Shown here piece by piece: positions 36,159 to 49,511 of a stretch of 54,913 nt of DNA. Every line of letters starts with the position of its first letter. Position 1 is the first letter of the stretch. The notes under the pieces were generated by a model. That model did no database searches and was not told the origin of the DNA. It saw nothing but the letters and a program-made list of their open reading frames with translations. Position numbers and translations under genes: made by a program. The DNA is from a virus (taxonomy: Duplodnaviria > Caudoviricetes), in the IMG/VR virus record IMGVR_UViG_3300025131_000048, positions 1-54,913 of that record. One strand, written 5' to 3'.

Positions 36159-36161
36159 TCC

Positions 36162-36190: not shown

Positions 36191-36196
36191 ATAGGC

Positions 36197-36394
36197 ATGA
36201 CAGTGTTTAAGACAGGCGATTTGGTCCGCAAAAAGCGGATGGAGTGGGACAAGCACACTCTGGGTCTCGTACTGGAACACAACGAAGTCTTAGAAGGGTT
36301 CAACAGGCTCAAGGTCTGTTTTCTTACTGACAACAAGACTGAAATGGTCCTCGCGGACCAGTACGAGGTTGTGAGTAATAATAAACAATTATGA
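36197..36394 (+). CDS. GDLV-family mini SH3-like protein
   Basis: FKTGDLVR...GLVL...VCF...YEVVS. Confidence 0.7.
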   Translation: MTVFKTGDLVRKKRMEWDKHTLGLVLEHNEVLEGFNRLKVCFLTDNKTEMVLADQYEVVSNNKQL

Positions 36395-36561
36395 ATTTTA
36401 AGGTTGGAGATATAGTGCAACACAAGAAATTTAAGCTGCGCTTTCTAATACTAGAAGCAGAATATTGGGGGTACAAAATGGAAAACTTACGAGACAAAGA
36501 AAAAGAAAAATTCCCCCTCCAAGAGGCACACAAAGATTATATACTAATAAGTGAGGCATAA
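36391..36561 (+). CDS. GDLV-family mini protein (56 aa, not in the ORF track)
   Basis: MNFKVGDIVQ...YILISEA; ATGA overlap. Confidence 0.65.
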   Translation: MNFKVGDIVQHKKFKLRFLILEAEYWGYKMENLRDKEKEKFPLQEAHKDYILISEA

Positions 36562-36667
36562 TATCAGAGATGAATAAGTTTTTTTGCAGGTTCTGCGGTT
36601 GGCACAGTCACAAGCAGTGGCACAAGTGTTTGGCATGCGGAAGCGGCGTCCCCCTCAAGGAGCGCAA

Positions 36668-36823
36668 GTGAAAATCGGTGACTTGGTGAAACTTACTGAA
36701 TCCGTGGGGATTATTGTTGAGGTCGCGGAATGGGCAACGCTCGTACAGTGGCTTGACGATGGAACTATTGAAGATATAGAAAACTATTATCCCAAAGAAG
36801 CGGAGGTTATAAGTGAGTCGTAG
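36668..36823 (+). CDS. GDLV-family mini protein
   Basis: AAGGAG SD; GTG start; KIGDLVK...GIIV...VQW...EVISE. Confidence 0.7.
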   Translation: MKIGDLVKLTESVGIIVEVAEWATLVQWLDDGTIEDIENYYPKEAEVISES

Positions 36824-37145
36824 TCCTGCTGACGAAGTAGCGGCAGACTGGGGGTGGGAAGAATTTATCCCCCTTGACGTAAAGCAGGGCGATCTGATTT
36901 GGATGGAGTGTCTGCCGGGAGGAATATGTATTTTTCTCAATAAGCACCCCCACTCGAAACAGCGCGATAACCTCCGCGCAAACTGTGAGTTCAGTGTTTA
37001 TCACGCCGTTGGTGGCCGCATGAGAATACCCGATTATTATTTTATTTCGCTTGACGAAGCCCACCGCTTGGGGTATACTGTAAAGACAGATGAAGAAGAG
37101 TCCCCCAATGATTGGGAGACGACCCCCTACGGAGAACAAAAATGA
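36813..37145 (+). CDS. GDLV-family-like protein
   Basis: GGAGG SD; VKQGDLIW. Confidence 0.55.
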   Translation: MSRSPADEVAADWGWEEFIPLDVKQGDLIWMECLPGGICIFLNKHPHSKQRDNLRANCEFSVYHAVGGRMRIPDYYFISLDEAHRLGYTVKTDEEESPNDWETTPYGEQK

Positions 37146-37333
37146 GAGTGGGCGACATTGTAAAACTTGTCGATAGTCCTTCGATTGAGTGGATGGAAAA
37201 CTATCTTGATAAAACATTTGAGATTCAAGATTTTTTGACTGGTTCGATGAAAATAAAGATGGTAGACACCGACCCCGAGTGGGTTTGGTTCGCGACAAAA
37301 GATAATTTTGAGCTGGTCGAGAGGGAAGAATGA
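37142..37333 (+). CDS. GDLV-family mini protein
   Basis: MRVGDIVK...FELVE. Confidence 0.7.
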   Translation: MRVGDIVKLVDSPSIEWMENYLDKTFEIQDFLTGSMKIKMVDTDPEWVWFATKDNFELVEREE

Positions 37334-37536
37334 ACTTCCGAGTCGGTGACGTTGTACGATGCCGGGGGCACCTCGCGGTAATTGTAGCCCACAAGCTCTA
37401 TGACGCGAAGCGTGACGGCTATGTTCTTGAGTACCTCAATCAAGCTGTTCCCCGCTCAGGCCGTGGGGAAAGAGTGGTACTCTCCGAAAATCTCACCTTG
37501 GTGAGTTCCTCGCAAAAAAACGAAAAAGACGGTTGA
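37330..37536 (+). CDS. GDLV-family mini protein
   Basis: FRVGDVVR...LTLVS. Confidence 0.7.
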   Translation: MNFRVGDVVRCRGHLAVIVAHKLYDAKRDGYVLEYLNQAVPRSGRGERVVLSENLTLVSSSQKNEKDG

Positions 37537-37561
37537 CAGAGGCCCTCAACGATGCTATTAT
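37533..37561 (+). promoter_or_regulatory. Promoter for the tRNA cluster
   Basis: TTGACA-N17-TATTAT. Confidence 0.65.
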
Positions 37562-37585
37562 AGGAGTATGATGGTGATTGGCGAT

Positions 37586-37661
37586 GGACCCATAGCTCAA
37601 CTGGCAGAGCACTGGACTTTTAATCCATTGGTTGTAGGTTCAAGTCCTACTGGGTTCACCA
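37586..37661 (+). tRNA. trnK: tRNA-Lys (TTT)
   Basis: GGACCCA/TGGGTTC acceptor stem, CT-TTT-AA loop, GTTCAAG T-loop, encoded CCA. Confidence 0.93.
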
Positions 37662-37676
37662 ATCAAACAGTTTCAC

Positions 37677-37763
37677 GGCGCGGTGGTGGAATCGGTATAC
37701 ACAGCAGACTCAAAATCTGCCGCCAACTATGGCTTGCGAGTTCGAGTCTCGCCCGCGCTACCA
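37677..37763 (+). tRNA. trnL: tRNA-Leu (CAA)
   Basis: GCAGA-CT-CAA-AA-TCTGC anticodon arm, long variable arm, GTTCGAG, encoded CCA. Confidence 0.93.
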
Positions 37764-37779
37764 ACTTAGGAAAAATATT

Positions 37780-38064
37780 ATGAGTGTAATGGGACCAGAC
37801 GGAAAAATTGGAATTGCGGGAGGCGGCTGGTGGTCGCCCTACGGCGACACCGACGAAGAAATCCAAGAGAATATGAAAACCGGACAGATGCCGAACGCGC
37901 CCGACGCCTTCCGTGCCTCTCCATTCTCTGGGGCCACTGAAAAAAAGAACGAGGATCTCCAGGATTTTCTTGGGAGCATTGGCGCTCTGGGCGGTCCCGC
38001 GAAAGAAGAATACGAGAAGAGAAAAAAGAAGCACCGAGGCCGAAGCAGGCGACGAGGCCGATAA
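37780..38064 (+). CDS. Hypothetical protein with basic tail
   Basis: AGGA SD; MSVMGPDGKIGIAGGGWW. Confidence 0.6.
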   Translation: MSVMGPDGKIGIAGGGWWSPYGDTDEEIQENMKTGQMPNAPDAFRASPFSGATEKKNEDLQDFLGSIGALGGPAKEEYEKRKKKHRGRSRRRGR

Positions 38065-38132
38065 AAGAGAGAAGAGTTAGACGATGCTTATGAACCTAAG
38101 AGAATACTCAGAAATGACCTACACCCCTGCGC

Positions 38133-38209
38133 GGGGCAGTAACTCAGTAGGTCAGAGTAGCGTTCTTATAAAGCGCCGGTCGCGGGTTCAAGTCCCGCCT
38201 GCCCTACCA
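38133..38209 (+). tRNA. trnI: tRNA-Ile (TAT)
   Basis: GGGGCAG/CTGCCCT acceptor stem, GCGTT-CT-TAT-AA-AGCGC arm, GTTCAAG, encoded CCA. Confidence 0.9.
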
Positions 38210-38226
38210 ATATCAAATGAGGAATT

Positions 38227-38382
38227 ATGAAGCGCCGAATATTTGCTGTTGAAGGTGCTGATTATAAATCATACTGGCGACGAGCAACAATAAATCAGAT
38301 ACGTTTAGAAAATCTTAAGAAGCTGTTGGCACGCAATTCACGAGAAAAAGTAGAAATACTCAGAAAGTCAAAAGATGTATGA
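38227..38382 (+). CDS. Small basic protein (51 aa, not in the ORF track)
   Basis: GAGG SD; MKRRIFAVEG. Confidence 0.5.
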   Translation: MKRRIFAVEGADYKSYWRRATINQIRLENLKKLLARNSREKVEILRKSKDV

Positions 38383-38605
38383 AATAGGAGATCTGGTGCG
38401 CCGAGCGAAGGAGCCCGATGGCCGACGTTTCAAAGAAGGTTTTGGAATTGTGGTGAAAACACTCAGGCAAAAAGAAGGATGGGACGAGCCCACTGTTGAA
38501 GTAGATTGGGGCGACGGGTATGTGTTGAGCGCCCCTCTTCGCTGGATTGAAAAATGTAGTTCCATTCCGAAGAGGAGGATAGAATATGCGAGTCAAGCTG
38601 AATAA
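38375..38605 (+). CDS. GDLV-family mini protein
   Basis: YEIGDLVR...GIVV...VEVDW. Confidence 0.7.
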   Translation: MYEIGDLVRRAKEPDGRRFKEGFGIVVKTLRQKEGWDEPTVEVDWGDGYVLSAPLRWIEKCSSIPKRRIEYASQAE

Positions 38606-38927
38606 AAAAGTAATTTGTGCCGATGGATTTAGCGTGTCGGTCCAGGCGAACGAGGGGGCGTATTGTACTCCTCGTCAGGACAGTGCCGAGCAATATACGG
38701 AAGTGGAACTTGGCTTTCCTTCCGCACCCGAAGAACTTATTATGGACTGGATAGAATCTTATGGAGATCCTCCCCCCGACCCTACCGGGGCAGTTTATCC
38801 CTACGTTCCGGTATCTGTGGTCACGAATGTAATTGCAAAGCACGGTGGGATTGTTTCTGGAGAAGTACCACCGGGCATCCCGAGACTGGAGGCAATAAGT
38901 GGAAAATTTAAAATTCCAAGCGGGTGA
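38586..38927 (+). CDS. Hypothetical phage protein
   Basis: VICADGFSVSVQA...YCTPR...EVELGFPS; GAGGAGG SD. Confidence 0.7.
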   Translation: MRVKLNKKVICADGFSVSVQANEGAYCTPRQDSAEQYTEVELGFPSAPEELIMDWIESYGDPPPDPTGAVYPYVPVSVVTNVIAKHGGIVSGEVPPGIPRLEAISGKFKIPSG

Positions 38928-39114
38928 TCTCGTAAAGTTTTTTCCTCACAAGCCTCCTGTCTCCGGTATACCGGAGATTGGGGTGGTGGTGGAAAGCAAA
39001 AAGATTCACCACGCAGAGCGCGGCTATCTATATGAAATTACAACAGTCCAACTGGGAGAGCAACAATATTACCTCCCCTCCTGCGACTTTAAACTAATTC
39101 AGAGAGTGAAATGA
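38899..39114 (+). CDS. GDLV-family mini protein
   Basis: FQAGDLVKF...GVVV...FKLIQ. Confidence 0.7.
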   Translation: MENLKFQAGDLVKFFPHKPPVSGIPEIGVVVESKKIHHAERGYLYEITTVQLGEQQYYLPSCDFKLIQRVK

Positions 39115-39359
39115 AGAAGACTATTATTTTGTTTTTGTTTTTAACCGGATGCGCCCATGTTCATCCGGCAACCTACACCGGGACGTGTCCGACAGATTTT
39201 CCGATTAAGGGGAATGTAGATTCCCTCGTCTACCATACGAGCGGCTCCCCCTATTATATACGCACGCGCGCAGAGATTTGTTTCGAGAGCGAAGAAGCTG
39301 CGGAGCGTCATGGCTACCGAGCCATCCAGAAAAAAAACTGGAAGATTTCTGTTGACTAA
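39111..39359 (+). CDS. Small lipoprotein with Ada-metal-binding-like domain
   Basis: Lipobox LTGC; IKGN...YH...CFESEEAAERHGYRA. Confidence 0.65.
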   Translation: MKKTIILFLFLTGCAHVHPATYTGTCPTDFPIKGNVDSLVYHTSGSPYYIRTRAEICFESEEAAERHGYRAIQKKNWKISVD

Positions 39360-39380
39360 GGAAATACCCCGTGCTATAGT
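39352..39380 (+). promoter_or_regulatory. Early promoter, leaderless
   Basis: TTGACT-N17-TATAGT-N6-ATG. Confidence 0.65.
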
Positions 39381-39386
39381 ATAAGC

Positions 39387-39584
39387 ATGATGAAGATTGG
39401 CGACCTCGTGAAGCTCTCAACCCCCGACAGTGACGACGGGAAGGTGGGGCTATTGCTCCACCAAATCCGCCCGAGGGACCGCGACGAAGTGACTGCATAT
39501 GGAGTACAAATTCTTGGTGAAATAGAAGTCCGCGATTATCTTACATGGGAAGTGGGGATTGTAAAAAATGTTCCAACCCGGTGA
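39387..39584 (+). CDS. GDLV-family mini protein
   Basis: MMKIGDLVK. Confidence 0.7.
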   Translation: MMKIGDLVKLSTPDSDDGKVGLLLHQIRPRDRDEVTAYGVQILGEIEVRDYLTWEVGIVKNVPTR

Positions 39585-39765
39585 TTTGATAAGGTACGGA
39601 GCGGCCCTGGGCATCTTGCTGCGAAAGCTCCAGTGGGATGAATTTGAACAAGAAGATTACCTTAATTGGGACGGAGAGCCCGCGTGGTGGATTCAGTATA
39701 CGAAGCTACCAAACCGCGTGTGGAACTACGAAGAAGAACTAACTCTGGTATCGAAAGGAAATTAG
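39568..39765 (+). CDS. GDLV-family mini protein
   Basis: FQPGDLIR...LTLVS. Confidence 0.7.
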   Translation: MFQPGDLIRYGAALGILLRKLQWDEFEQEDYLNWDGEPAWWIQYTKLPNRVWNYEEELTLVSKGN

Positions 39766-39767
39766 AA

Positions 39768-39974
39768 ATGGAAATTGGAGATAAGGTACAACATTTTAAC
39801 ACCGGGTCAGTTGGCACGGTTCTTGACAGCAGCTACGAGATTGAAAGCCCTCGACAGCAGTTCCTCGTACAGTGGGAGGACGACCGAAGTTTCAGTCGAG
39901 ACTCGTGGGAGCGCACCACGGATTTGTCAATCATTCCGCACATTTACGAAACAAATACTTTTATTTCAGAATAA
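39768..39974 (+). CDS. GDLV-family mini protein
   Basis: MEIGDKVQ...GTVL...VQW...LSII. Confidence 0.7.
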   Translation: MEIGDKVQHFNTGSVGTVLDSSYEIESPRQQFLVQWEDDRSFSRDSWERTTDLSIIPHIYETNTFISE

Positions 39975-40023
39975 AGTTTCTGTCCTTGACTCTCGACCAT
40001 CGGCGTGCTATACTATAAGTACG
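39953..40023 (+). promoter_or_regulatory. Repeated early promoter cassette
   Basis: ACTTTTATTTCAGAATAAAGT dyad, then TTGACT-N17-TATACT-N6-ACGATG. Confidence 0.75.
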
Positions 40024-40233
40024 ATGAAGACTGGCGATTTGGCACGAGTGGTACAGCCCGAGGAGTTGGCGCTTACACCCCCTTATTTGGGGGAACTCTG
40101 TGTCATTGTCACCAGAAAAGATGGGCCGATTGCCCCTCCCTGGTATGAAGTCTGCATCGCTGACAGTCAGACGGGGCAGCAGTACCTTAGACTGATGCGC
40201 GACAACTACCTGGAATTACTCAATGCCTTGTGA
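40024..40233 (+). CDS. GDLV-family mini protein
   Basis: MKTGDLAR...LELLN. Confidence 0.7.
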   Translation: MKTGDLARVVQPEELALTPPYLGELCVIVTRKDGPIAPPWYEVCIADSQTGQQYLRLMRDNYLELLNAL

Positions 40234-40432
40234 GAACTGCCGCAAGAAAGCAAAACGACAGTTCAAAATTATTGAACCGGGCATCGTATATAAAATGAAT
40301 AACACCGACACCGAGGACGAGCGCATAGGAACTTTTTGTACAGCAGCTTGTGCAAAATCATTTGCAGCCTGGATGTACGGGCCGGGACTATCTAAAATGC
40401 CGAAGGGCTGGAAGGTTGAGGAAATTAAATGA
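40223..40432 (+). CDS. Small Zn-binding (TRASH-like) protein
   Basis: CENC...FCTAAC. Confidence 0.6.
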   Translation: MPCENCRKKAKRQFKIIEPGIVYKMNNTDTEDERIGTFCTAACAKSFAAWMYGPGLSKMPKGWKVEEIK

Positions 40433-40620
40433 AAATCGGTGACTTGGTAAGATCGCGGATCGGAAAACACGGTGTGGGAATCATAATAGATACTTATTGG
40501 AACAACGCCAATGGAGACTACAGTGAAATGCGTGTTAGGTGGTTCTCTGAGTGGGCGAATAACAGCGGGTGCCCTTGGTTCCTCACTCGCGATCTGGAGA
40601 TACTCAGTGAAAATCGGTGA
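40429..40620 (+). CDS. GDLV-family mini protein
   Basis: MKIGDLVR...LEILSENR. Confidence 0.75.
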   Translation: MKIGDLVRSRIGKHGVGIIIDTYWNNANGDYSEMRVRWFSEWANNSGCPWFLTRDLEILSENR

Positions 40621-40629
40621 CTTGGTAAA
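40595..40629 (+). repeat. Dual-coded junction repeat (34/35 identical to 41255-41289)
   Basis: TGGAGWTACTCAGTGAAAATCGGTGACTTGGTAAA. Confidence 0.9.
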
Positions 40630-40825
40630 ATATATTGCGGACGAAGACTTCGACGCAGACTTCTACGGAGGGGATATGTTTGGTATCATCGAGGAATTGG
40701 AGTACTACGTCCCGAGCCTTAAATGCTACGAGAAAATTTGGGTTCGATGGCTCGCCAGCGCCAATTTACAGTGGGCAGACTCAGACCACTTGGAAATTGT
40801 CAGCGAAGTGAAAACTTTTATTTGA
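40607..40825 (+). CDS. GDLV-family mini protein
   Basis: GTG start; KIGDLVK...LEIVSEVKTFI. Confidence 0.75.
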   Translation: MKIGDLVKYIADEDFDADFYGGDMFGIIEELEYYVPSLKCYEKIWVRWLASANLQWADSDHLEIVSEVKTFI

Positions 40826-40880
40826 CAATAAAGTTTTGGCCCTTGACTCTCGGCCCCTTCTGGGCTATACTGTAAGTACG
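40811..40880 (+). promoter_or_regulatory. Repeated early promoter cassette
   Basis: AAAACTTTTATTTGACAATAAAGTTTT, then TTGACT-N17-TATACT-N6-ACGATG. Confidence 0.8.
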
Positions 40881-41060
40881 ATGAAGGCTGGCGATTTGGT
40901 AAAGACTACAGGATTTGGCCCCGAGGGCACAACCGACGAGCTTGGCGTGATTGTCAAAGCCGACCCGAGATTCCAGAGAGTTTTTATTGTTTATTTTAAC
41001 AGCGGCGTGCGAATCCCATACGCCGCAGACGGCCTGGTGGTTGTAAATGAAAATCGGTGA
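40881..41060 (+). CDS. GDLV-family mini protein
   Basis: MKAGDLVK...VVVNENR. Confidence 0.75.
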   Translation: MKAGDLVKTTGFGPEGTTDELGVIVKADPRFQRVFIVYFNSGVRIPYAADGLVVVNENR

Positions 41061-41280
41061 CTTGGTAAAGTGGGGCGGTTTGCACTCTCGAAACGAGGGC
41101 TGGTCCGGCGAACGCTCCGACACAGGAATCATTGTGGACGGACCCCGCGACGAAGAGGCAAGAGAGGGTTCCGATGACGAAGACTCCCCCGCGACTTCTT
41201 ACGCTGTTGCGTGGTTCGACGCAAAAACAACATTCTGGCACCTCGATTTCAATTTGGAGTTACTCAGTGAAAATCGGTGA
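41047..41280 (+). CDS. GDLV-family mini protein
   Basis: MKIGDLVK...LELLSENR. Confidence 0.75.
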   Translation: MKIGDLVKWGGLHSRNEGWSGERSDTGIIVDGPRDEEAREGSDDEDSPATSYAVAWFDAKTTFWHLDFNLELLSENR

Positions 41281-41482
41281 CTTGGTAAAGGTAACCCCAG
41301 CCCCAAAGTGGGATATGAACCCCGAAGATCACACCCATATTGGTGTTGTAACTAAACTGGCTCATTCCTTCGACGGATACACAGAGCAGATTGCTCTCCT
41401 TAGTTTTGGGGACCATAATGGAATCTTTCGCACAAACGACTGGAGATTTGAGATTCTCAGTCAAGTAAAAACTTTTATTTGA
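41267..41482 (+). CDS. GDLV-family mini protein
   Basis: GTG start; KIGDLVK...FEILSQVKTFI. Confidence 0.75.
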   Translation: MKIGDLVKVTPAPKWDMNPEDHTHIGVVTKLAHSFDGYTEQIALLSFGDHNGIFRTNDWRFEILSQVKTFI

Positions 41483-41537
41483 CAATAAAGTTTTGCTTCT
41501 TGACTCCGCGCCTGGACCCTGCTATACTATAAGTACG
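41468..41537 (+). promoter_or_regulatory. Repeated early promoter cassette
   Basis: AAAACTTTTATTTGACAATAAAGTTTT, then TTGACT-N17-TATACT-N6-ACGATG. Confidence 0.8.
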
Positions 41538-41738
41538 ATGAAGGTTGGCGATTTAGTAACGATGGACACCCCACTCACACCCGAGAGGCATGAAGTGGGG
41601 ATTATTCAGAAGATAGTTCAGTCTCGACGTTTCGCTGGAACCCGAGCTTGGACCTCGCCGGTCTATCACATTCGCTGGCCCGATGGGGGAATCAGCAATC
41701 AGTACGATAATGAAATCGTCCTAGTTTCAGAGGCTTAG
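41538..41738 (+). CDS. GDLV-family mini protein
   Basis: MKVGDLVT...IVLVSEA. Confidence 0.75.
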   Translation: MKVGDLVTMDTPLTPERHEVGIIQKIVQSRRFAGTRAWTSPVYHIRWPDGGISNQYDNEIVLVSEA

Positions 41739-41740
41739 AT

Positions 41741-42121
41741 ATGGGCTATCGCTCGCAAGTAGTTTTGGCAATCGCCAAAGAAATTCAGCCACACTTCATG
41801 GCTGCTCTGTCGGTTTGCAACGCAGCGACCGTCCTCGTTTTTAATGACGCCGACCGTTTCGACAGAGATTATTATCAGGACGGCACCGGGCACTGGCTCA
41901 TTCATTGGGATTCAATCAAGTGGTACGATTCCTACGAGGAAATTGGTACTATTGAAAAGTTTGTGGATGCTGCGAATGATGACTGCATTGAACTTGGCGA
42001 AGACGAGGGAGACTCCAGCGACTATATTAAATTTGTGCGCGTGGGGGAGGAAACGGGCGATATTGAGCGCCGAGGCTTCGGTTTTGATGATATTCATGCC
42101 TCCACCTCAATTAGCTTCTAA
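41741..42121 (+). CDS. Hypothetical phage protein
   Basis: MGYRSQV...WDSIKWY...FVRVGEE. Confidence 0.7.
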   Translation: MGYRSQVVLAIAKEIQPHFMAALSVCNAATVLVFNDADRFDRDYYQDGTGHWLIHWDSIKWYDSYEEIGTIEKFVDAANDDCIELGEDEGDSSDYIKFVRVGEETGDIERRGFGFDDIHASTSISF

Positions 42122-42176
42122 AAAGTATTTCAAATAAAAGATTGACTTTCCTACAAAAAATGGTTATACTATAGGC
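42121..42176 (+). promoter_or_regulatory. Repeated early promoter cassette (second type), leaderless
   Basis: AAAAGTATTTCAAATAAAAGA-TTGACT-N17-TATACT-N6-ATG. Confidence 0.75.
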
Positions 42177-42413
42177 ATGATGATGAATACAAACACAGAC
42201 ATTCTTGGTTTTGAATCCGACGCGCTACAGCGGTTCACCGAAGCCCGACGACAAGGACAATCTCTACCTCCCGAGGTAGAATCGCTCTTTGATTCGATTG
42301 GGATTTGGTGGGATGAAATCTCGCAAGAATACTTTAGCATGCAGCAGGTTTATACTGATTCGATTAGCGACTTGCTGGCGACTCATGGACCCGAGCCCGA
42401 GCCGGAAAATTAA
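42177..42413 (+). CDS. Acidic hypothetical protein
   Basis: Starts at the predicted +1. Confidence 0.6.
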   Translation: MMMNTNTDILGFESDALQRFTEARRQGQSLPPEVESLFDSIGIWWDEISQEYFSMQQVYTDSISDLLATHGPEPEPEN

Positions 42414-42414
42414 G

Positions 42415-42989: not shown

Positions 42990-43028
42990 AAGATTGACTC
43001 TCGCCCGGTTCTGGGCTATACTGTAAGT
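42973..43028 (+). promoter_or_regulatory. Repeated early promoter cassette (second type), leaderless
   Basis: AAAAGTATTTCAAATAAAAGA-TTGACT-N17-TATACT-N6-ATG. Confidence 0.75.
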
Positions 43029-43423: not shown

Positions 43424-43580
43424 CTTGGTAATGCGTACTTATGGTGAAGGCCGACGACCAGTGGCAATCCTTGTGGGTTGGCGTTGGGAAGGTGCGGTGG
43501 TCCAAGTAAGATGGTTGGGCAGCGACGAGACAGAAGAAATCGGTTCTCAATATGTGGAGTTGGCATATGAAGCCCGGTGA
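43410..43580 (+). CDS. GDLV-family mini protein (56 aa, not in the ORF track)
   Basis: MKIGDLVM...VQVRW...VELAYEAR. Confidence 0.7.
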   Translation: MKIGDLVMRTYGEGRRPVAILVGWRWEGAVVQVRWLGSDETEEIGSQYVELAYEAR

Positions 43581-43764
43581 TTTGGTAAAATTTGATTGGA
43601 AGAATACGCCCGCTGGGAGAGGTCCCGATGAAATGGGAATTTGTTTGAAGGTTAGTCAACCAAATCCACTAGAGAAGCCCATCGCAAAAGTGCATTGGTT
43701 CTCGATGAAGCACCCACTTCAGCATTTGACTGAAGTTTTGGAGGTTGTAAGTGAAAATCGGTGA
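43567..43764 (+). CDS. GDLV-family mini protein
   Basis: MKPGDLVK...LEVVSENR. Confidence 0.75.
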   Translation: MKPGDLVKFDWKNTPAGRGPDEMGICLKVSQPNPLEKPIAKVHWFSMKHPLQHLTEVLEVVSENR

Positions 43765-43778
43765 TTTGGTAAGATTTA
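43739..43778 (+). repeat. 40-bp dual-coded junction repeat (identical to 43941-43980)
   Basis: TGGAGGTTGTAAGTGAAAATCGGTGATTTGGTAAGATTTA. Confidence 0.95.
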
Positions 43779-43966
43779 ATGACTCGCCTGACGAACGCGA
43801 CCCCTGCGGGCGGCCTAGCCGCGTAGGTTGCCGTTCTCCCGAGTTGGGAATCATTACAAAAACTGACCCAGGCATGCCTAAACGCTGTCATGTTGAATGG
43901 TTCAGTTGTGACAACCGAGGTTGGTGGAGCTACAAGAATCTGGAGGTTGTAAGTGAAAATCGGTGA
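43751..43966 (+). CDS. GDLV-family mini protein
   Basis: KIGDLVRF...LEVVSENR. Confidence 0.75.
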   Translation: MKIGDLVRFNDSPDERDPCGRPSRVGCRSPELGIITKTDPGMPKRCHVEWFSCDNRGWWSYKNLEVVSENR

Positions 43967-44159
43967 TTTGGTAAGATTTACAGCCGAAAGCTGGGGGACT
44001 CCGCTGGAGGACCGCCCGCTCGGCATTGTGGTTAAAGAACCCTACACTCCCGAAGTCCGCGCCCACCCCGTTGTGGTTGACATTCGGTTCCCCGGCGACA
44101 CCGGGATTTACTCAATTACCCCCAACGACCTGGAGCTTCTCAGTGGCACAAGAAACTAA
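43953..44159 (+). CDS. GDLV-family mini protein
   Basis: KIGDLVRF...LELLS. Confidence 0.75.
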   Translation: MKIGDLVRFTAESWGTPLEDRPLGIVVKEPYTPEVRAHPVVVDIRFPGDTGIYSITPNDLELLSGTRN

Positions 44160-44176
44160 ATATAATTTAACCGGTT

Positions 44177-44244
44177 AACTTTTATTTGAGAATAAAGTTT
44201 TGGAGCTTGACTCCCGTCCGCTTCTGAGCTATACTATAGGTACG
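44177..44244 (+). promoter_or_regulatory. Repeated early promoter cassette
   Basis: AACTTTTATTTGAGAATAAAGTTTT, then TTGACT-N17-TATACT-N6-ACGATG. Confidence 0.8.
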
Positions 44245-44472
44245 ATGAAGGTTGGCGATTTGATTATTTGGGATGAAGAGGGCAACGGTTTTTACTCTGG
44301 AGCCGTCGCGGGGCTGATCATCGAACGAGACGACAGCGACCACGATGAACCTGCGGTGCTGGTACAATTTATTGAGTCTCCTCCGTGTCCCCCGAACTAC
44401 CTGCACTATTACGACAGGGAAATCGAATTGTGGACGAAAGAAGGAACAGTGAGAGTTCAGAGTGCGACGTAA
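44245..44472 (+). CDS. GDLV-family mini protein
   Basis: MKVGDLII. Confidence 0.75.
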   Translation: MKVGDLIIWDEEGNGFYSGAVAGLIIERDDSDHDEPAVLVQFIESPPCPPNYLHYYDREIELWTKEGTVRVQSAT

Positions 44473-44659
44473 AAAGCCAGAAATCGGGGACCTTGTTAGG
44501 GTTTCAGCGACATTGTACATCTCGACCGCTCCTTTCACCTGTCTCGTAACGAGCACTCAGGGTATTCACCTTTGGGTTCAACCATTGAACCGGGCTCTGA
44601 AGCCCGTTTACGTCCGACGCGACAGCGTGGAGGTTATTTCTCGTGCCAACTCACACTGA
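44462..44659 (+). CDS. GDLV-family mini protein
   Basis: PEIGDLVR...VEVIS. Confidence 0.7.
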   Translation: MRRKKPEIGDLVRVSATLYISTAPFTCLVTSTQGIHLWVQPLNRALKPVYVRRDSVEVISRANSH

Positions 44660-44879
44660 TTTGAGAATTGGGATGCTGGTTCGCTGGCATGGCGACGACT
44701 GCTGCGACGACGACCCCAACGATTTGGGGATTGTGGTGAAGATGCCAGGACAGAGCTTCCACGGTTACTATCATATTGCGTGGTCTGTAACCAATACCCT
44801 GAGTCATCACAGTGCTGAAATGATTGAGGAATCTTTGTATCAGGGGCATATGGAGATTATCCCCGCAGCCCCCGCCTAA
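44643..44879 (+). CDS. GDLV-family mini protein
   Basis: LRIGMLVRW...GIVV...MEII; GGAGG SD. Confidence 0.65.
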   Translation: MPTHTDLRIGMLVRWHGDDCCDDDPNDLGIVVKMPGQSFHGYYHIAWSVTNTLSHHSAEMIEESLYQGHMEIIPAAPA

Positions 44880-44928
44880 AAAGTATTTCAAATAAAAGAT
44901 TGACAAAGCCTGAAGTCTCAGGCATAAT
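44879..44928 (+). promoter_or_regulatory. Early promoter cassette
   Basis: AAAAGTATTTCAAATAAAAGA-TTGACA-N17-CATAAT (TCAGGCATAAT). Confidence 0.75.
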
Positions 44929-44968
44929 ATAGATAGTAGGGTGATGAACACCCGACCCCGGAGAGAAG

Positions 44969-45121
44969 ATGGACACAAATAACCTTGAAAATATGATTCG
45001 CGATAAGCTGACTGATGATGATCTGATTTCAGACCTTATTGAACAGGATGATGTCTTTGAACATCTAATAGATTTGATTGGCGAGACTATTGATGAATGG
45101 GGCCAGACGGAGAGAAAATGA
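44969..45121 (+). CDS. Small acidic protein (50 aa, not in the ORF track)
   Basis: GGAG SD; D/E-rich; ATGA overlap with the next gene. Confidence 0.5.
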   Translation: MDTNNLENMIRDKLTDDDLISDLIEQDDVFEHLIDLIGETIDEWGQTERK

Positions 45122-45735
45122 AAGACAACTACACTTCACCCTACGCAAAAAACGTGCCAAGTATGTACAATTCCGAAGTTGTGGCTCTGGCGAAGAATCG
45201 CTGGACTGACGGCGAGACTCAGCTTGCTATAGCGAAGCACTGGTACAGGCTAGGCAGAGAATATCTTGCTGGCAACCCGAACATTACCGAGGAAGCCGCA
45301 GAAGAACTGTGGAAGGTTCGCGGATACGTCCTAAAGGCCCGCCTGCTGGCGAAGGGCAGCATAAAGCTGAAGAAGGGGGAATATACCGAAGTTTATCGTA
45401 AGTATTTCAAGAACAATCGTCGTTCGCACTGGCGCATGATGCAAGCGTTTCTGGGTGGCTACTCTTATTGGGACAGCACCGGCAACAAAAGTAATACCCC
45501 GAGTGAATTGCTACAAGAGATTTATGACGACTTGCCCGATGAAGAAAAGCGAGCGTATACCCTGGAACGATTTATCAGTCACCAGAATTGCTCTCTGGAG
45601 CTTGCTATCAGGTTGTCTACAATAAAGACACCCGAAGTGCCCAATCACTACTATCCCGCCAACTTCGACAAAATTCGACAATCGGCTTTGATGAAGGTTG
45701 CCGAGCTTACTAAGAAGCAGCTTGAAGGAAAGTAA
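45118..45735 (+). CDS. Helical (LRV-like) repeat hypothetical protein
   Basis: NPNITEEAAEEL, NTPSELLQEI, HQNCSLEL. Confidence 0.65.
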   Translation: MKDNYTSPYAKNVPSMYNSEVVALAKNRWTDGETQLAIAKHWYRLGREYLAGNPNITEEAAEELWKVRGYVLKARLLAKGSIKLKKGEYTEVYRKYFKNNRRSHWRMMQAFLGGYSYWDSTGNKSNTPSELLQEIYDDLPDEEKRAYTLERFISHQNCSLELAIRLSTIKTPEVPNHYYPANFDKIRQSALMKVAELTKKQLEGK

Positions 45736-45739
45736 AAAG

Positions 45740-45925
45740 ATGACGAAGCCCCGTGGAATGATTATGATTGGTGCCTTGGTCCGAGAGAGCCAGGGCACCG
45801 GAATCCTAAAAATTGTCACCGGATATAAGTGTGATGCGTCCTGCGAGTTCGTTCATTTTGCGGGCGACAGCGCAACAACTTGGTATCCCCTGTACGACTA
45901 CGAGATTCTTTCCGATGGACACTAA
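45740..45925 (+). CDS. GDLV-family mini protein
   Basis: IMIGALVR...YEILS. Confidence 0.65.
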   Translation: MTKPRGMIMIGALVRESQGTGILKIVTGYKCDASCEFVHFAGDSATTWYPLYDYEILSDGH

Positions 45926-46139
45926 ATGCCACGGCATTAAAATTGGCGACCTTGTGAAGTTTAAGCATCACATTTTTGATGGTATGCAACCCATTCATCT
46001 TGTAGTCGAGGTCTTCGCCCGCGACCGTTATACCTGGGAGCAGCCGGCACGCCGGGATGAACCGATGAATATCCGACTTCACGGAAACAGCGGCATTACT
46101 CACCGTGCAAATAATTTTGTGGTGGTGAAGCGAGCCTAA
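45915..46139 (+). CDS. GDLV-family mini protein
   Basis: IKIGDLVKF...FVVVK. Confidence 0.7.
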   Translation: MDTKCHGIKIGDLVKFKHHIFDGMQPIHLVVEVFARDRYTWEQPARRDEPMNIRLHGNSGITHRANNFVVVKRA

Positions 46140-46188
46140 AAAGTATTTCAAATAAAAGTTTGACATCCACAAGATGTTCAGGCATAAT
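46139..46188 (+). promoter_or_regulatory. Early promoter cassette
   Basis: AAAAGTATTTCAAATAAAAGT-TTGACA-N17-CATAAT. Confidence 0.75.
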
Positions 46189-46208
46189 ATAGATACTGGA
46201 GAAACGCG

Positions 46209-46484
46209 ATGAAGACTGTACTCGTTTTTGATACTGAGGATGACAAGGGCATGCGTGCCACAATCAAGATTGTGGAGCACCTTGCAGAGCAATATCTTCC
46301 GTCCCGAAGGTCGGCTCGTCACGATGTTTCTTTCGGGAAGATTGAATTTATCAAGACGCTCCGCACTTTTATGAAGGATGCGGAGGAACTTGAGGACCCG
46401 TCTGACGGAACCAGCCTGCGGTTCGCCAAGGGATTTGCCGACAAGGTGTGGAAGCGGAAGAACAAGGACCTGGGAATCTCCTAA
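46209..46484 (+). CDS. Hypothetical protein
   Basis: GGAG SD; KIEFIKTLR...SLRFAKGFAD resembles the ribosomal L7/L12 C-terminal motif. Confidence 0.65.
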   Translation: MKTVLVFDTEDDKGMRATIKIVEHLAEQYLPSRRSARHDVSFGKIEFIKTLRTFMKDAEELEDPSDGTSLRFAKGFADKVWKRKNKDLGIS

Positions 46485-46543
46485 ACTTTATTTTCAAATA
46501 AAAGATTGACAGCAAGAAGTTTCTCAGGCATAATATAGGTACG
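46484..46543 (+). promoter_or_regulatory. Early promoter cassette
   Basis: AT-rich dyad, then TTGACA-N17-CATAAT-N6-ACGATG. Confidence 0.75.
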
Positions 46544-46699
46544 ATGAAACGTGAGGGACGAAACCTGATTGCACTCGCTGCCTGGAACCACCGGGGAGCA
46601 GGAAAGCACAAGAACAAGTCCAACCGTGGAAGCGGCAAGGGCAGCGGCAAAGCTGCTCGTCACGCGAAGCACAAGGGGCGACGATATGCCCGCGATTGA
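46544..46699 (+). CDS. Small basic ArfA-like peptide (51 aa, not in the ORF track)
   Basis: RNLIALAAWNHRGAGKHKNKSNRGSGKGSGKAARHAKHKG. Confidence 0.55.
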   Translation: MKREGRNLIALAAWNHRGAGKHKNKSNRGSGKGSGKAARHAKHKGRRYARD

Positions 46700-46907
46700 G
46701 GTCGGAGATTTGGTAAAAAGAAATCCCCCCCACCTGGGACCAGACAACAAAGTTTATCTGGTGGCAGAAATAGAAAAACGCGAACATTCCGATGGAAGGC
46801 CGATTCTCGGCCCGCACGGTGCACCGAGTTGGTGCATACTCCACGACGACGAGGACCGCTTGACTGCCGTCAAGTCTTTGACGGTCGTACTCAAGGCCCG
46901 ACGATGA
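46686..46907 (+). CDS. GDLV-family mini protein
   Basis: IEVGDLVK...LTVVL. Confidence 0.7.
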   Translation: MPAIEVGDLVKRNPPHLGPDNKVYLVAEIEKREHSDGRPILGPHGAPSWCILHDDEDRLTAVKSLTVVLKARR

Positions 46908-47125
46908 GAAGAACAGACGCATGGGGAAAGCCCATCTTGCGAGTGGGCGACATTGTACAATGTTTGCCACAAAAGGACCCCGGCACAGTAGTAAAGATTC
47001 TCCAGGTGAACGCAAACGGCGCTTGGGTTGTCGCGGTCAAGTGGTTCACTTGGGACAACGGCAGAACCACAGAAGAATACATCACAGAACTTGAACTTAT
47101 AAGCGAGGCACAAAATGAGAAATAA
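46904..47125 (+). CDS. GDLV-family mini protein
   Basis: LRVGDIVQ...GTVV...VKWF...LELISE. Confidence 0.7.
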   Translation: MRRTDAWGKPILRVGDIVQCLPQKDPGTVVKILQVNANGAWVVAVKWFTWDNGRTTEEYITELELISEAQNEK

Positions 47126-47423
47126 TCAAGTAATTCAAGCATTTAGACGAGGCGACAAGGCTCGTAGCTGGACCGAAAACCTCCGCACGGATGGAACAAC
47201 ACTCTGGTCGTACAACAAGAAAATCGCTCACCGCACCAGCGGAGGCGTGATTGTTGTGGGCGACTTCACCGCACCGGGCGGGCAGTTCCATTCGGTGACG
47301 ACTTCGGGCCATGTAAATCGTGCGAAGGGTGTAGCCCATCACGTTTTTCACCCGAGAATCTATATCGAATCTGAGCAGTTCTTTGTGCACGGCGACAACC
47401 TAACTTTTACTAATTTTATTTGA
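47115..47423 (+). CDS. Hypothetical phage protein
   Basis: LWSYNKKIA...SVTTSGHVN. Confidence 0.7.
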   Translation: MRNNQVIQAFRRGDKARSWTENLRTDGTTLWSYNKKIAHRTSGGVIVVGDFTAPGGQFHSVTTSGHVNRAKGVAHHVFHPRIYIESEQFFVHGDNLTFTNFI

Positions 47424-47475
47424 AAATAAAGTTTAAAGGGTTGACTTCTTACTGAAACTCAGGCATAATTAGAAC
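47412..47475 (+). promoter_or_regulatory. Early promoter cassette, leaderless
   Basis: TTTTATTTGAAAATAAAGTTT, then TTGACT-N17-CATAAT-N6-ATG. Confidence 0.75.
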
Positions 47476-48099
47476 ATGGACAACAACGGAGACACTACGA
47501 TGATAGAACGAGTTGAACGACTAACCACCCGTGTGCCTGAAAATGGCGGTTGGGACCGAGGTTTTATTGAGTCCGTCAAAGAGCAACTAGAAGCAGGCCG
47601 AACGCTCTCCCCTCGACAGATTGAAACAGTAGAGAAGATTGAGGGCAAGTTTTCCGACGAAGCCATCGAGGCTGCTGCAACCTGGGCCGAAAGGTGGGAC
47701 GACGAGAAGCAGGCGCGATTTAATGTCGCCCTGAAATATTATGGACGCACGGGCTACTATCAAAACATTGTTCAGAAAGCCTGGGGCAGTGAGAAGTTTA
47801 TTCCATCCCAAAAGGAATACAACGCGATGGCATGCAACAAGTATGCCAATGCTGTTATCAACAACGCGATGAGTGAGGCAAAGTGGCCCCTTGGTTCGCT
47901 GGTTAAGTTCCGCACTGCGAATCGAATTCGCAGCTTCTATCGCGGCAAGATTGCCGTGGTGGTTTCCCATCCTACTGACGTAAAGACGCACGCGAAGGGT
48001 GGCAAGCCCTACGGTGTTGTCCTCATTGGCAATTCTGCCATTATTCAATGCGAGGAACGCGACTTGAAAAACGCGCCGAAGAAGGCGAAGCGTTCCTAA
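47476..48099 (+). CDS. Hypothetical protein with C-terminal SH3-like domain
   Basis: FIESV...LSPRQ; WPLGSLVKF...EERDLK. Confidence 0.7.
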   Translation: MDNNGDTTMIERVERLTTRVPENGGWDRGFIESVKEQLEAGRTLSPRQIETVEKIEGKFSDEAIEAAATWAERWDDEKQARFNVALKYYGRTGYYQNIVQKAWGSEKFIPSQKEYNAMACNKYANAVINNAMSEAKWPLGSLVKFRTANRIRSFYRGKIAVVVSHPTDVKTHAKGGKPYGVVLIGNSAIIQCEERDLKNAPKKAKRS

Positions 48100-48127
48100 C
48101 AGGGCGACGGGTAATATCTATATATAG

Positions 48128-48153
48128 GGGATTCAATGTCTCTCATGAATCCC
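48128..48153 (+). terminator. Hairpin after the 47476 gene
   Basis: GGGATTCA-N10-TGAATCCC (no U-tract). Confidence 0.35.
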
Positions 48154-48272
48154 GGCGAGAACATCAACAATTAATTTGGTGGGCGCGAAAACAATATTAA
48201 ATTTAATATTGTAGGTTGCAAGGAGACTAGGCACCAGGGACCGAAGAGAACCTGGACCCCGACCCCGAATAG

Positions 48273-48351
48273 AATCAATGACTTAGAGCAATAACTTTTT
48301 TTTCACAATAAACTTTAACAGCTTGACTTCTTGCCTGGACTCAGGCATAAT
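48273..48351 (+). promoter_or_regulatory. Early promoter cassette with IHF-like site
   Basis: AATCAATGACTTA 50 bp upstream of TTGACT-N17-CATAAT. Confidence 0.7.
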
Positions 48352-48388
48352 ATAAGGACAGTGGCAATCAAGCCACGCGGAGACAACA

Positions 48389-48703
48389 ATGAAACTTGAA
48401 CTGACCGACGACGAGTGGACGACTGTCCTCGTCGCCCTCGACCACTACAGGGCGCACAAGGCGGCGATGGCAGCCGAACTGTACGACCCTCAACTGATGG
48501 AAGATGCTGGGTCCGCTGAGTGGTGCTGGCAGAAGATTTGGGGTGCAATCTGCATCGAGCGCAACGCAACCGCCGACGCGGTGGGCGAAGGCGAACAGCC
48601 CCAACTTCCTTTCAACACACAAACAAATTCAGGGCGCTCCGCTTCGGTGGACCCCTTCGACTTGGGTATGGCTAGCCAGTACGACAATATGGGAGACAAG
48701 TAA
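48389..48703 (+). CDS. Hypothetical protein
   Basis: GGAG SD; 104 aa. Confidence 0.65.
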   Translation: MKLELTDDEWTTVLVALDHYRAHKAAMAAELYDPQLMEDAGSAEWCWQKIWGAICIERNATADAVGEGEQPQLPFNTQTNSGRSASVDPFDLGMASQYDNMGDK

Positions 48704-48857
48704 ATGTTGGTACTCGCAGCGGTTAGTGTGACTCTTGGAATCATCGGGAGTCTGTAAAAGTGGAGTATTATCAGTCACTTAGGTATGGTTTCGACCCCGA
48801 TTATGACCCTCCGGTCTTTGACGACGAGGAGGAAACCCCCGAGGTAAAACCCAATGA

Positions 48858-48942
48858 TTCCGAGGACATAGAAGAATAACTTTTATTTGACTATAAAGTT
48901 CTAACTCTTGACTTTCAAGTAAATCTCAGGCATAATATACCT
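48858..48942 (+). promoter_or_regulatory. Early promoter cassette, leaderless
   Basis: AACTTTTATTTGACTATAAAGTT, then TTGACT-N17-CATAAT-N6-ATG. Confidence 0.75.
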
Positions 48943-49131
48943 ATGATGAAGGTTGGCGATTTGGTAAAATACTCTGCCCCGCGAGGGCGCAGCACATGGC
49001 TGAAAGGTATCGGAGTGGTGACAGAAACCAACCTGGACCGGCCAGCCCATGTGAGAGTTAGCTTTCCCAATGTTGGAGTCCACGCATGGATGTTCAAAGA
49101 AACTTTGGAGGTTCTCAATGAAACCCGGTGA
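48943..49131 (+). CDS. GDLV-family mini protein
   Basis: MMKVGDLVK...LEVLNETR. Confidence 0.75.
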   Translation: MMKVGDLVKYSAPRGRSTWLKGIGVVTETNLDRPAHVRVSFPNVGVHAWMFKETLEVLNETR

Positions 49132-49318
49132 TTTAGTTGTATGGACGGAGTATGCCGCAGGTTGGTCTAACGGACCCAAAGCGGGCGAGTACGCGGGCAC
49201 AGTTGTTCGCGTCATTCCTCCGACCCGCCGCAAACGCAGCCGCGCTAAGATTGAAATCTTGGCCGAAGAAACTTTCATTGTCGGACGAAGATTTATTGAG
49301 GTTGTCAGTGGAGTCTGA
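49118..49318 (+). CDS. GDLV-family mini protein
   Basis: MKPGDLVV...IEVVS. Confidence 0.75.
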   Translation: MKPGDLVVWTEYAAGWSNGPKAGEYAGTVVRVIPPTRRKRSRAKIEILAEETFIVGRRFIEVVSGV

Positions 49319-49511
49319 TTATATTCCCCTCCATCCCGGCGATTTAGTGGAAATCTCGCGGAATTCAATTCTTTTCAGGCATGGCGACCGAGGCTGGGTC
49401 GAATCAATGGGCTGGGGCTCCGGCGTACTCATTTGTGTGGTGCAACTATTTGAGAAGTCCAACAAAGTACGGATTCTCGTTAATGATTTGATAAAGATTT
49501 CAAACACTTAG
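49308..49511 (+). CDS. GDLV-family mini protein
   Basis: LHPGDLVE...LIKIS. Confidence 0.7.
   Translation: MESDYIPLHPGDLVEISRNSILFRHGDRGWVESMGWGSGVLICVVQLFEKSNKVRILVNDLIKISNT

Follow-up and report, generated by a model that had tools for sequence, protein, structure and literature searches.

The array, its junctions and its promoter cassettes

The DNA considered here is the linear IMG/VR virus record IMGVR_UViG_3300025131_000048, which at its whole length of 54,913 bases is referred to as the window and whose completeness was estimated at about 30%. Positions 36197-49511 carry an array of small genes on a single strand, and the subject of this work is the gene family that occupies it, namely 33 open reading frames (ORFs) of 51-78 amino acids (aa) which can be aligned on one scaffold and are all found on the + strand. 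An earlier note, made from the sequence alone, had described about 35 such ORFs; the common scaffold holds, while the count was slightly high, since 33 firm members and 1 marginal member are counted. In the 33-member alignment G4 is invariant, D5 and V7 are found in at least 90% of the members and the C-terminal consensus is L-E-x-x-S. Pairwise identity reaches a median of 21% and a maximum of 44%, the 33 members fall into 33 separate clusters at 60% identity and their isoelectric points (pI) range from 4.05 to 10.5. A hidden Markov model (HMM) built from the same 33 members, and hence circular for those 33, was run over 684 ORF stretches of the window (at least 40 aa, both strands), whereby no further match at E<=1e-3 was obtained and a single marginal 34th member was identified (42415-42666, E 0.0017). 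When the ratio of non-synonymous to synonymous substitution (dN/dS) was computed without the first 8 and the last 6 codons, medians of 0.06-0.51 resulted across 17 orthologue clusters (median of medians 0.32), and judged by this substitution pattern the family genes are real genes under purifying selection. In the following list, the exact 19-mer is the repeat described below, the -10 box is that of the preceding promoter and numbers such as L064 denote loci of relatives.

36197-49511, + strand: whole array; family genes (33 firm, 1 marginal), small unrelated genes (about 14) and tRNAs (3), single strand
36197-36394, + strand: family gene; start 6 nt past the -10 box
36391-36561, + strand: family gene; ATGA overlap of 4 nt
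36668-36823, + strand: family gene; exact 19-mer, GTG start, 106-nt gap upstream
37142-37333, + strand: family gene; 4-nt overlap
37330-37536, + strand: family gene; 4-nt overlap
38375-38605, + strand: family gene; 8-nt overlap
38899-39114, + strand: family gene; 29-nt overlap, its GGT GAT codons serve the upstream P-S-G-stop
39390-39584, + strand: family gene; first cistron, ATG 9 nt past the -10 box
39568-39765, + strand: family gene; 17-nt overlap, upstream P-T-R-stop
39768-39974, + strand: family gene; M-E-I-G-D-K-V
40024-40233, + strand: family gene; ATG 9 nt past the -10 box
40429-40620, + strand: family gene, AlphaFold model 1; exact 19-mer, 4-nt ATGA overlap with the non-family gene 40223-40432
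40607-40825, + strand: family gene; 14-nt dual-coded junction, exact 19-mer, GTG start
40881-41060, + strand: family gene; ATG 9 nt past the -10 box
41047-41280, + strand: family gene; 14-nt junction, exact 19-mer
41267-41482, + strand: family gene; 14-nt junction, exact 19-mer, GTG start
41538-41738, + strand: family gene; ATG 9 nt past the -10 box
42415-42666, + strand: marginal 34th member; K-V-G-A-L-V
43032-43241, + strand: family gene; ATG 9 nt past the -10 box
43238-43423, + strand: family gene; 4-nt overlap
43410-43580, + strand: family gene; 14-nt junction, 97-99% identical 5' part elsewhere in L064 and L070
43567-43764, + strand: family gene; 14-nt junction, upstream E-A-R-stop
43751-43966, + strand: family gene; 14-nt junction, identical 40-mers on both sides
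43953-44159, + strand: family gene; 14-nt junction, L070 orthologue (84%) has another upstream partner
44245-44472, + strand: family gene; first cistron in the window, 14-nt-joined in L055 (90% aa) and L054
44462-44659, + strand: family gene; 11-nt overlap
44643-44879, + strand: family gene; 17-nt overlap, orthologues in 17 loci
45758-45925, + strand: family gene; I-G-A-L-V
45915-46139, + strand: family gene; 11-nt overlap
46686-46907, + strand: family gene; about 150 nt past promoter 46506
46904-47125, + strand: family gene, most conserved (31 loci), AlphaFold model 2; 4-nt overlap, L093 homology (99.95%) starts at its ATG
48946-49131, + strand: family gene; ATG 9 nt past the -10 box
49118-49318, + strand: family gene; 14-nt junction, upstream E-T-R-stop
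49308-49511, + strand: family gene, weakest firm member (E 3.3e-4); 11-nt overlap

The 19-mer TGAAAATCGGTGAYTTGGT matches the + strand exactly at eight sites and the - strand at none, and it was absent from 100 dinucleotide-preserving shuffles. All eight positions named in the earlier note were recovered, and its proposal that the repeat codes for a gene end and the next start at once was borne out by ORF reading at six of them (40608, 41048, 41268, 43411, 43752 and 43954). Here, the upstream gene ends on E-N-R-stop and the downstream gene begins with [M/V]-K-I-G-D-L-V within an overlap of 14 nt, whereby AGT/AAT-GAA-AAT-CGG-TGA closes the one gene and RTG-AAA-ATC-GGT-GAY opens the other. The remaining sites are found in a 4-nt ATGA overlap with a non-family gene (40430) and behind a gap of 106 nt (36669). 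Likewise as described before, the segments 43739-43778 and 43941-43980 are identical at 40 of 40 positions and bracket exactly the gene 43751-43966, the segments 40595-40629 and 41255-41289 match at 34 of 35 positions, and the endings EAR, ETR, PTR and PSG occur as variants. In total, 21 of the 33 family genes overlap the preceding gene, and overlaps of 14 nt (n=8), 4 nt (n=6), 11 nt (n=3), 17 nt (n=2), 8 nt (n=1) and 29 nt (n=1) are found in the window.

The Shine-Dalgarno (SD) sequence, which had been suggested to be supplied by the upstream L-E-V codons, was found as GGAG within these codons, 5-12 nt 5' of the start, in six of the eight 14-nt junctions. Where the overlap measures 14, 17 or 29 nt, the T of GGT and the GA of GAY, i.e., of the invariant Gly-Asp codons, make up the upstream TGA; because GGT thereby creates the upstream stop, it is used at these junctions, whereas GGC is used in first cistrons. 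As the junction motif also contains ATGA, an upstream frame arriving in either of the other frames stops inside the motif. Codon choice is biased also where no dual coding exists: the Leu of the motif is TTG in 17 of 26 cases (background 18-21%, p 1.3e-6) and the Val is GTA in 17 of 27 cases (background 17-23%, p 1e-5). From the reading frames we infer that the downstream cistrons are translationally coupled via the stop/start overlap. At other loci, where 426 distinct family genes were compared, 120 of the 176 overlaps between consecutive members measure 14 nt and 22 measure 4 nt, and the C-termini there (E-S-R 78, E-N-R 56, E-G-R 18) mirror the downstream K-V, K-I and similar residues. With the 14-nt form being the usual one across these loci, the dual-coded junction belongs to the whole family and not to one genome.

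The earlier reading was incomplete in that a second repeat class was overlooked, which consists of 18 sigma70-type promoters close to the consensus, all on the + strand and located from 35859 to 49578. These follow the pattern TTGAC[ATG]-N16-18-[TC]AT..T and possess AT-rich upstream sequences, partly shared spacers and shared flanks including AACTTTTATTTGACAATAAAGTTTT and TTTCAAATAAAAGATTGAC. The promoter scan returned 44 sites as compared to 15.8 +/- 3.7 in shuffles, with 20 of the 23 best sites on the + strand, and the cassettes split the array into operons of 1-6 genes.

35859-35887, + strand: sigma70-type promoter-like site
36162-36190, + strand: promoter-like site
37533-37561, + strand: promoter-like site before the tRNAs
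37586-38209, + strand: tRNA-Lys(UUU), tRNA-Leu(CAA) and tRNA-Ile(UAU), within the array behind their own promoter-like site 37533-37561
39352-39380, + strand: promoter cassette (TTGACT-N17-TATAGT)
39986-40014, + strand: promoter cassette
40843-40871, + strand: promoter cassette, in the 116-nt repeat D1
41500-41528, + strand: promoter cassette (D1)
42142-42170, + strand: promoter cassette
42994-43022, + strand: promoter cassette
44207-44235, + strand: promoter cassette (D1)
44900-44928, + strand: promoter cassette, strong spacer hairpin (-9.7 kcal/mol, z -4.2)
46160-46188, + strand: promoter cassette
46506-46534, + strand: promoter cassette
47441-47469, + strand: promoter cassette
48323-48351, + strand: promoter cassette, spacer hairpin (-9.2 kcal/mol, z -2.8)
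48908-48936, + strand: promoter cassette (D1)
49550-49578, + strand: promoter cassette directly past the array
40813-40837, 41470-41494, 44177-44201, 47411-47435, 48293-48317, 48878-48902 and 49520-49544: AT-rich palindrome, 5' of the -35 box

Eight first cistrons possess an ATG exactly 9 nt past the -10 box and lack an SD, and all of them start with ATG AAG nnn GGC GAT (9-nt spacers include 39381-39392, 40015-40026, 40872-40883, 41529-41540, 43023-43034, 44236-44247 and 48937-48948). ATG is the start codon of all eight and of a ninth first cistron with 6-nt spacing, GTG is used by nine of the 24 other family genes, and at other loci all ten genes with a promoter at most 12 nt away start with ATG. 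Given the 9-nt spacing without SD, the first-cistron mRNAs are probably leaderless. Spacer hairpins of -4.7 kcal/mol or below are predicted in seven of 17 cassettes, two of which beat their shuffles (0 and 3 of 200). Immediately 5' of the -35 box, seven cassettes carry the AT-rich palindrome AACTTTTATT-TGACA-AATAAAGTT, which doubles as coding sequence for the tail K-T-F-I-stop in the genes 40607-40825 and 41267-41482. As its RNA folding is weak (0 to -7.3 kcal/mol; z<-2 in three of eight copies), the palindrome may represent an UP element or the operator of a dimeric regulator.

Fold and distribution of the family

AlphaFold predicted a five-strand barrel for both members that were modelled, with a predicted local distance difference test (pLDDT) score of 90.3 for the gene 40429-40620 (model 1, paralogue alignment) and of 81.7 for the gene 46904-47125 (model 2, orthologue-only alignment). 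When both models were compared with the Protein Data Bank (PDB) by Foldseek, the PcrA/UvrD Tudor domain, PetP, PWWP and the Spt5/NusG/ribosomal KOW domains scored best, with a probability of about 1 and template modelling (TM) scores of 0.5-0.76, all E-values being at least 0.018; among predicted viral structures, unnamed proteins of 53-85 aa ranked on top. A sequence-profile search of the PDB gave matches which were all SH3-like but below threshold (best E 0.059). The common SH3-like fold that had been suspected for the family is thus supported by two predicted barrels with Tudor/KOW/PWWP likeness. None of the 33 members reached the gathering threshold of any Pfam family, none of ten tested members matched PHROGs at E<0.06, and one member searched by tblastn against 50,697 phage records gave no match. 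Since barrel models were obtained but no member passes the Pfam or PHROG thresholds, the fold is named SH3/Tudor/KOW-like and no named family is assigned. In the ESM Atlas only unnamed viral clusters were found, the nearest named entries being SH3-C_UBE2O (52% of cluster members) and DUF4314. Distant homologues fuse 3-6 domain copies in one chain and match DUF1918, PsaE and the C-terminal domain of nitrile hydratase beta, whereby the fused homologues P0003-P0005 match DUF1918 with E 3.6e-16. In P0001, P0003, P0004 and P0005 the copies form in-frame tandem repeats, each starting M-K/E-F-K-V-G-D, and by their sequences one family seems to exist in two states, as tandem genes and as tandem domains. 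A candidate link between P0001 and the 557-aa gene upstream of the array was rejected (best E 0.2).

With a cut-off of E<=1e-3, a profile search yielded 1551 cluster representatives, the majority of which are single-domain proteins of 50-80 aa, and the best 120 of 760 further profile matches were unnamed or annotated as 'hypothetical' and lacked a Pfam domain. The exact 19-mer was found in 39 IMG/VR stretches on contigs as long as 293 kb, each of these loci having 1-23 members, and 545 family genes from about 130 loci form 322 clusters. Within 596 Gb of prokaryote genomes, 44 single 19-mer matches but family genes at only five loci were identified, which gave no usable host clue. One 305-kb contig binned as a Methylococcaceae metagenome-assembled genome (L170) has eight family genes and might be either a jumbo phage that was binned wrongly or a hint at the host. 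A full-text literature search retrieved no description of the family, its architecture or its junction, and DUF1918 was mentioned in two papers only, which both concern mycobacteria. Judged by these searches, the family is large, unnamed and at home in uncultured marine phages.

Rearrangement among relatives and its probable explanation

Relatives were collected via the 19-mer and via flanking proteins, among them the product of an anchor gene within the array.

45097-45735, + strand: non-family 212-aa anchor gene; 166 relatives in metagenome contigs

Owing to this number of relatives many neighbourhoods could be compared, and the 107-aa gene 42666 used as query found no relative. Orthologue mapping, akin to the alignment of relatives which the earlier note had proposed, revealed gene content and order to vary, with two arrangements around the anchor gene. 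In L093 and L121 the order is 44643, 43238, 41047, 37142, and L054 and L056 run collinear to the window from 44245 to 47649, at an identity of about 80-85%. While the window, L064 and L070 have 44245 or its orthologue as a first cistron, in L055 (90% aa) and L054 a 14-nt overlap joins the orthologue to another family gene, whereby the break falls into codons 2-5 and the sequences are identical from the GAT-TTG of codon 5 on. Over 8015 nt L093 shares 99.95% identity with the window; upstream its sequence is unrelated, and the switch falls on the ATGA/ATG of 46904. In L064 and L070 the first 123 nt of gene 43410 (97-99% identity) fill the slot of the window's 46686, with the switch in codon 2, and both contigs end 123 nt into this segment. 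Moreover, L064 is devoid of three genes between 43431 and 43934, and the alignments on either side share a 40-nt overlap at the junction repeat.

Breakpoints were counted for 38 orthologue pairs (18 clusters) whose gene starts share an identity of at least 90%. Homology was lost at -4 to +12 of the start codon in 11 pairs (9 clusters), at the ATG of 46904 in 6 (from the 46904 cluster), in codons 4-5 of the 46904 gene in 7 and further upstream in 9, and it was conserved throughout in 5. Breakpoints between near-identical orthologues hence cluster at the start codon or junction motif, as had been anticipated. After six redundant loci had been dropped, the adjacency of the window was found to be lost at 147 of 178 promoter or gap boundaries, the corresponding figure for overlap junctions being 34 of 67 (Fisher p 1.3e-6, with counts that are not independent), so that whole operons are the commoner unit of rearrangement, next to which single genes also switch partners via the overlaps. 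When Logan contigs of four runs were compared with 35800-49700, the sides of the listed joints measured only 22-34 nt, as can also result from repeats or foreign organisms; loose ends were numerous at the repeat, which none of the listed pieces spans, and pieces in the runs X1 and X2 match the window with 0-1 differences.

The anatomy of the array, the fold, the purifying selection, the family-wide junction and the differing neighbours and orders in relatives have been established. With moderate confidence, we regard the array as a hyperplastic region in which the genes of an old, diversified barrel family are re-joined to new neighbours at shared gene ends and promoter cassettes. As each gene body is flanked by the same short DNA ends or by a promoter cassette, genes can be re-joined to nucleotide precision. 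According to this model, the region would probably be expressed early, first cistrons would start leaderless and later ones would be coupled through the overlap RTG-AAA-NNC-GGT-GA, with GGAG coming from the upstream L-E-V. The likeliest route would be short-homology recombination by the phage's own recombinase, with crossovers falling inside the junction motif RTGAAAATCGGTGAYTTGGTA or the promoter cassettes, and the barrel proteins may serve as host-directed binders. That the phage encodes a RecA of its own, as had been claimed before, was confirmed:

2936-4063, + strand: UvsX/RecA-like recombinase (phrog_97, E 1.5e-55), candidate enzyme for the exchanges

A more far-reaching form of this idea, which is advanced tentatively and is more doubtful than not, assumes the gene ends to be a selected adaptor that stops both other frames (ATGA, GGTGA) and restarts translation. 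Self-contained barrel cassettes of about 200 bp could then be moved, deleted or inserted anywhere in the array or behind any promoter by the UvsX-type recombinase, and this integrase-free system, clade-wide in marine phages, would assemble custom sets of host-protein binders. As a bolder side reading, for which no evidence was found, low-rate +1 slippage at CGG-TGA might fuse neighbouring domains, comparable to the fused P0003.

Several points weigh against the favoured model of re-joining at shared ends. All comparisons were made with metagenome assemblies, which are possibly chimeric at repeats, a reservation that concerns the switches of L093 and of L064/L070 and the three genes missing from L064, and loci and orthologue pairs are not independent. 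Stem-loops, the hallmark of the promoter early stem-loop (PeSL) cassettes considered below, are convincing in only two of 17 cassettes. In two of the three best-resolved cases, i.e., L093 and L064/L070, the switch occurs at the start codon with few shared bases, and as microhomology instead of a long repeat is found there, illegitimate recombination plus selection fits as well. Orthologous cassettes between genomes look closer (about 90%) than the paralogous ones of the window (about 80%) by eye, hence there is no sign of concerted evolution, and within one population neither a recent duplicate nor a deletion variant was observed (33 genes, 33 clusters). Finally, function alone, namely stop, SD, start and two structural strands, could conserve the junction DNA.

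The rival that survives best is nevertheless judged rather unlikely: the motifs would be kept solely for two beta-strands and for stop/SD/start coupling, the repeats would not be preferred crossover sites, and rare illegitimate joins would occur anywhere, with selection retaining those at gene boundaries. Phage mosaicism is usually argued from just such illegitimate joins, of which selection keeps the boundary ones. The requirement of GGT for TGA formation and the retention of L-E-V-V-S even in operon-final genes are expected under this rival, which is equally favoured by the ATG switches of L093 and L064/L070, the closer orthologous cassettes and the lack of recent duplicates. What weighs against it is the strong over-use of TTG and GTA in codons that are not dual-coded, the linking of genes with far-diverged bodies by identical 40-mers and the promoter spacer sequence common to the cassettes; furthermore, overlap joins must be base-exact, yet many partners share the 14-nt form.

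The earlier note had proposed an accordion, meaning fast expansion and contraction by unequal crossover which would leave recent duplicates and deletions and allow a quick response to host defences. The gene bracketed by identical 40-mers and the three genes missing from L064, with the 40-nt overlap of the flanking alignments on the junction repeat, are in line with this proposal, which is nonetheless improbable, as the 33 genes form 33 clusters at 60% identity (maximum 44%, median 21%), orthologues are retained across many lineages under purifying selection (median dN/dS 0.32) and the collinearity of L054 and L056 with the window extends over 44245-47649 (about 80-85% identity). With recent duplicates absent, the accordion is the wrong picture, and the sequence comparisons describe an old, stable repertoire that is re-ordered and not recently expanded or contracted. 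That the mosaic joints are chimeric contigs assembled at repeats shared by co-occurring strains is very improbable, for although L064 and L070 stop 123 nt into a near-identical segment and share one contig-name prefix with L093, and although Logan contigs break at the repeats with none spanning them, both anchor gene orders recur in many contigs with differing name prefixes and in IMG/VR records, the 14-nt junction with varied partners occurs at 120 junctions on about 40 contigs, and pieces of the window are matched with 0 differences in two runs.

The phage and its array among known systems

The left part of the window encodes, next to the UvsX/RecA-like recombinase, a gp32-like single-stranded DNA-binding protein, a DnaB-like helicase, a ribonucleotide reductase and a DnaE-like polymerase (phrog_405), for which the best tblastn matches were DnaE-like genes of Bacillus phages at 30%. 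For polymerase and recombinase the nearest cultured relatives are only about 30% identical, no megablast match to the window was obtained among 50,697 deposited phage genomes, and the runs containing window sequence carry the labels marine or hydrothermal-vent metagenome, with no RNA run among those listed; the phage is a large, uncultured, marine one without a cultured relative. In an Rfam scan the three tRNAs were the sole matches. Within 13511-18472 the DnaE-like polymerase gene is followed directly by two genes, of which 16973-18007 codes for a short protein of 344 aa that is adenylosuccinate-synthetase-like (PF00709, E 4.9e-84) and 18011-18472 for one that is dUTPase/dCTP-deaminase-like, a pair which we take to resemble PurZ-type modules for 2-aminoadenine DNA. 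The segment 18724-29420 codes for an enzyme of the inosine monophosphate dehydrogenase (IMPDH)/GMP-reductase type, ClpP, Cpn60, a trypsin-like peptidase and VWA proteins, and cupin and phosphomannomutase-like genes are found at 26986-30569. A pair of genes for a MoxR-like AAA ATPase and a DUF2201/VWA metallopeptidase-like protein (50594-53105) lies 3' of the array in the window and upstream of the anchor gene in many relatives; L093 (5169-7628) has two copies of it, about 73% and 99.95% identical to that of the window.

Small beta-barrels such as SH3, Tudor, KOW and PWWP comprise five strands and about 60 aa, as does the family described here, and its structural look-alikes are 5dma, 6yi2 and 7egs (UvrD/PcrA Tudor, RNA-polymerase-binding), 2n5u (PetP) and the Spt5/NusG KOW domains. 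As RNA-polymerase-binding domains are among the closest solved look-alikes, concrete targets for testing are at hand. Unlike the named barrel families, the array members reach no Pfam threshold (0/33, DUF1918 being PF08940) and no Foldseek E<=1e-3, and they are stand-alone single domains with pI values of 4.05-10.5. Within abundant marine phages, the family also makes up a large group of stand-alone Tudor/KOW-like barrels that lack annotation.

Translational coupling via overlapping stop and start codons (ATGA and the like) with an SD inside the upstream gene is a common arrangement. As compared to such ordinary coupling, the family possesses a fixed 14-nt overlap over hundreds of paralogous junctions, in which the stop is made from invariant Gly-Asp codons and a second-frame TGA (ATGA) is offered as well. 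Multigene families of the poxvirus type, or 'genomic accordions', likewise unite many tandem paralogues of a small gene of the host-interaction type in a large virus, but here the paralogues are old and individually conserved, and no recent copy-number change is seen. Integron cassettes, too, are promoterless single-gene units which are strung behind a promoter and re-ordered; unlike in integrons, exchange would here go by homology and not by site-specific recombination. No integrase was found among the matches of 20 larger non-family ORFs to PHROGs and of 40 to Pfam, neither search having been aimed at integrases or attC-type sites.

The closest described system, according to our comparison, is that of the PeSL cassettes, which the array resembles at its promoter cassettes and in its modular reshuffling. 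PeSL cassettes are described for T4-type phages as repeated early promoters with stem-loops in hyperplastic regions, and recombination at these cassettes deletes, inserts or replaces small genes and yields mini-circles (Arbiol et al. 2010, PMC2839356; Comeau et al. 2014, PMC4122927). Both systems possess repeated strong sigma70-like promoters with AT-rich upstream sequence, placed densely among small genes without assigned function, gene content and order that differ between relatives at the cassettes, a recombinase of the phage's own and a proposed exchange at conserved cassettes of about 100 bp which carry their own expression signals. Unlike in PeSL, the phage is not T4-type, as judged by its DnaE-like polymerase, though UvsX-like and gp32-like genes are present; convincing stem-loops are confined to two of 17 cassettes; the shuffled genes are one family and not unrelated ORFans; and many exchanges are located at the intragenic, dual-coded stop/start overlap of paralogues and not in intergenic DNA. 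Much of phage gene content consists of small genes of unassigned function, whose gain, loss and re-ordering are largely unexplained, and for these questions the array provides a clean natural system, with one fold in hundreds of diverged versions, a junction fixed to the nucleotide and the same genes found with different partners. If the junction was indeed a preferred crossover site, the PeSL idea would extend from intergenic promoters to dual-coded gene ends, and the overlap would constitute a second, finer-grained unit of shuffling.

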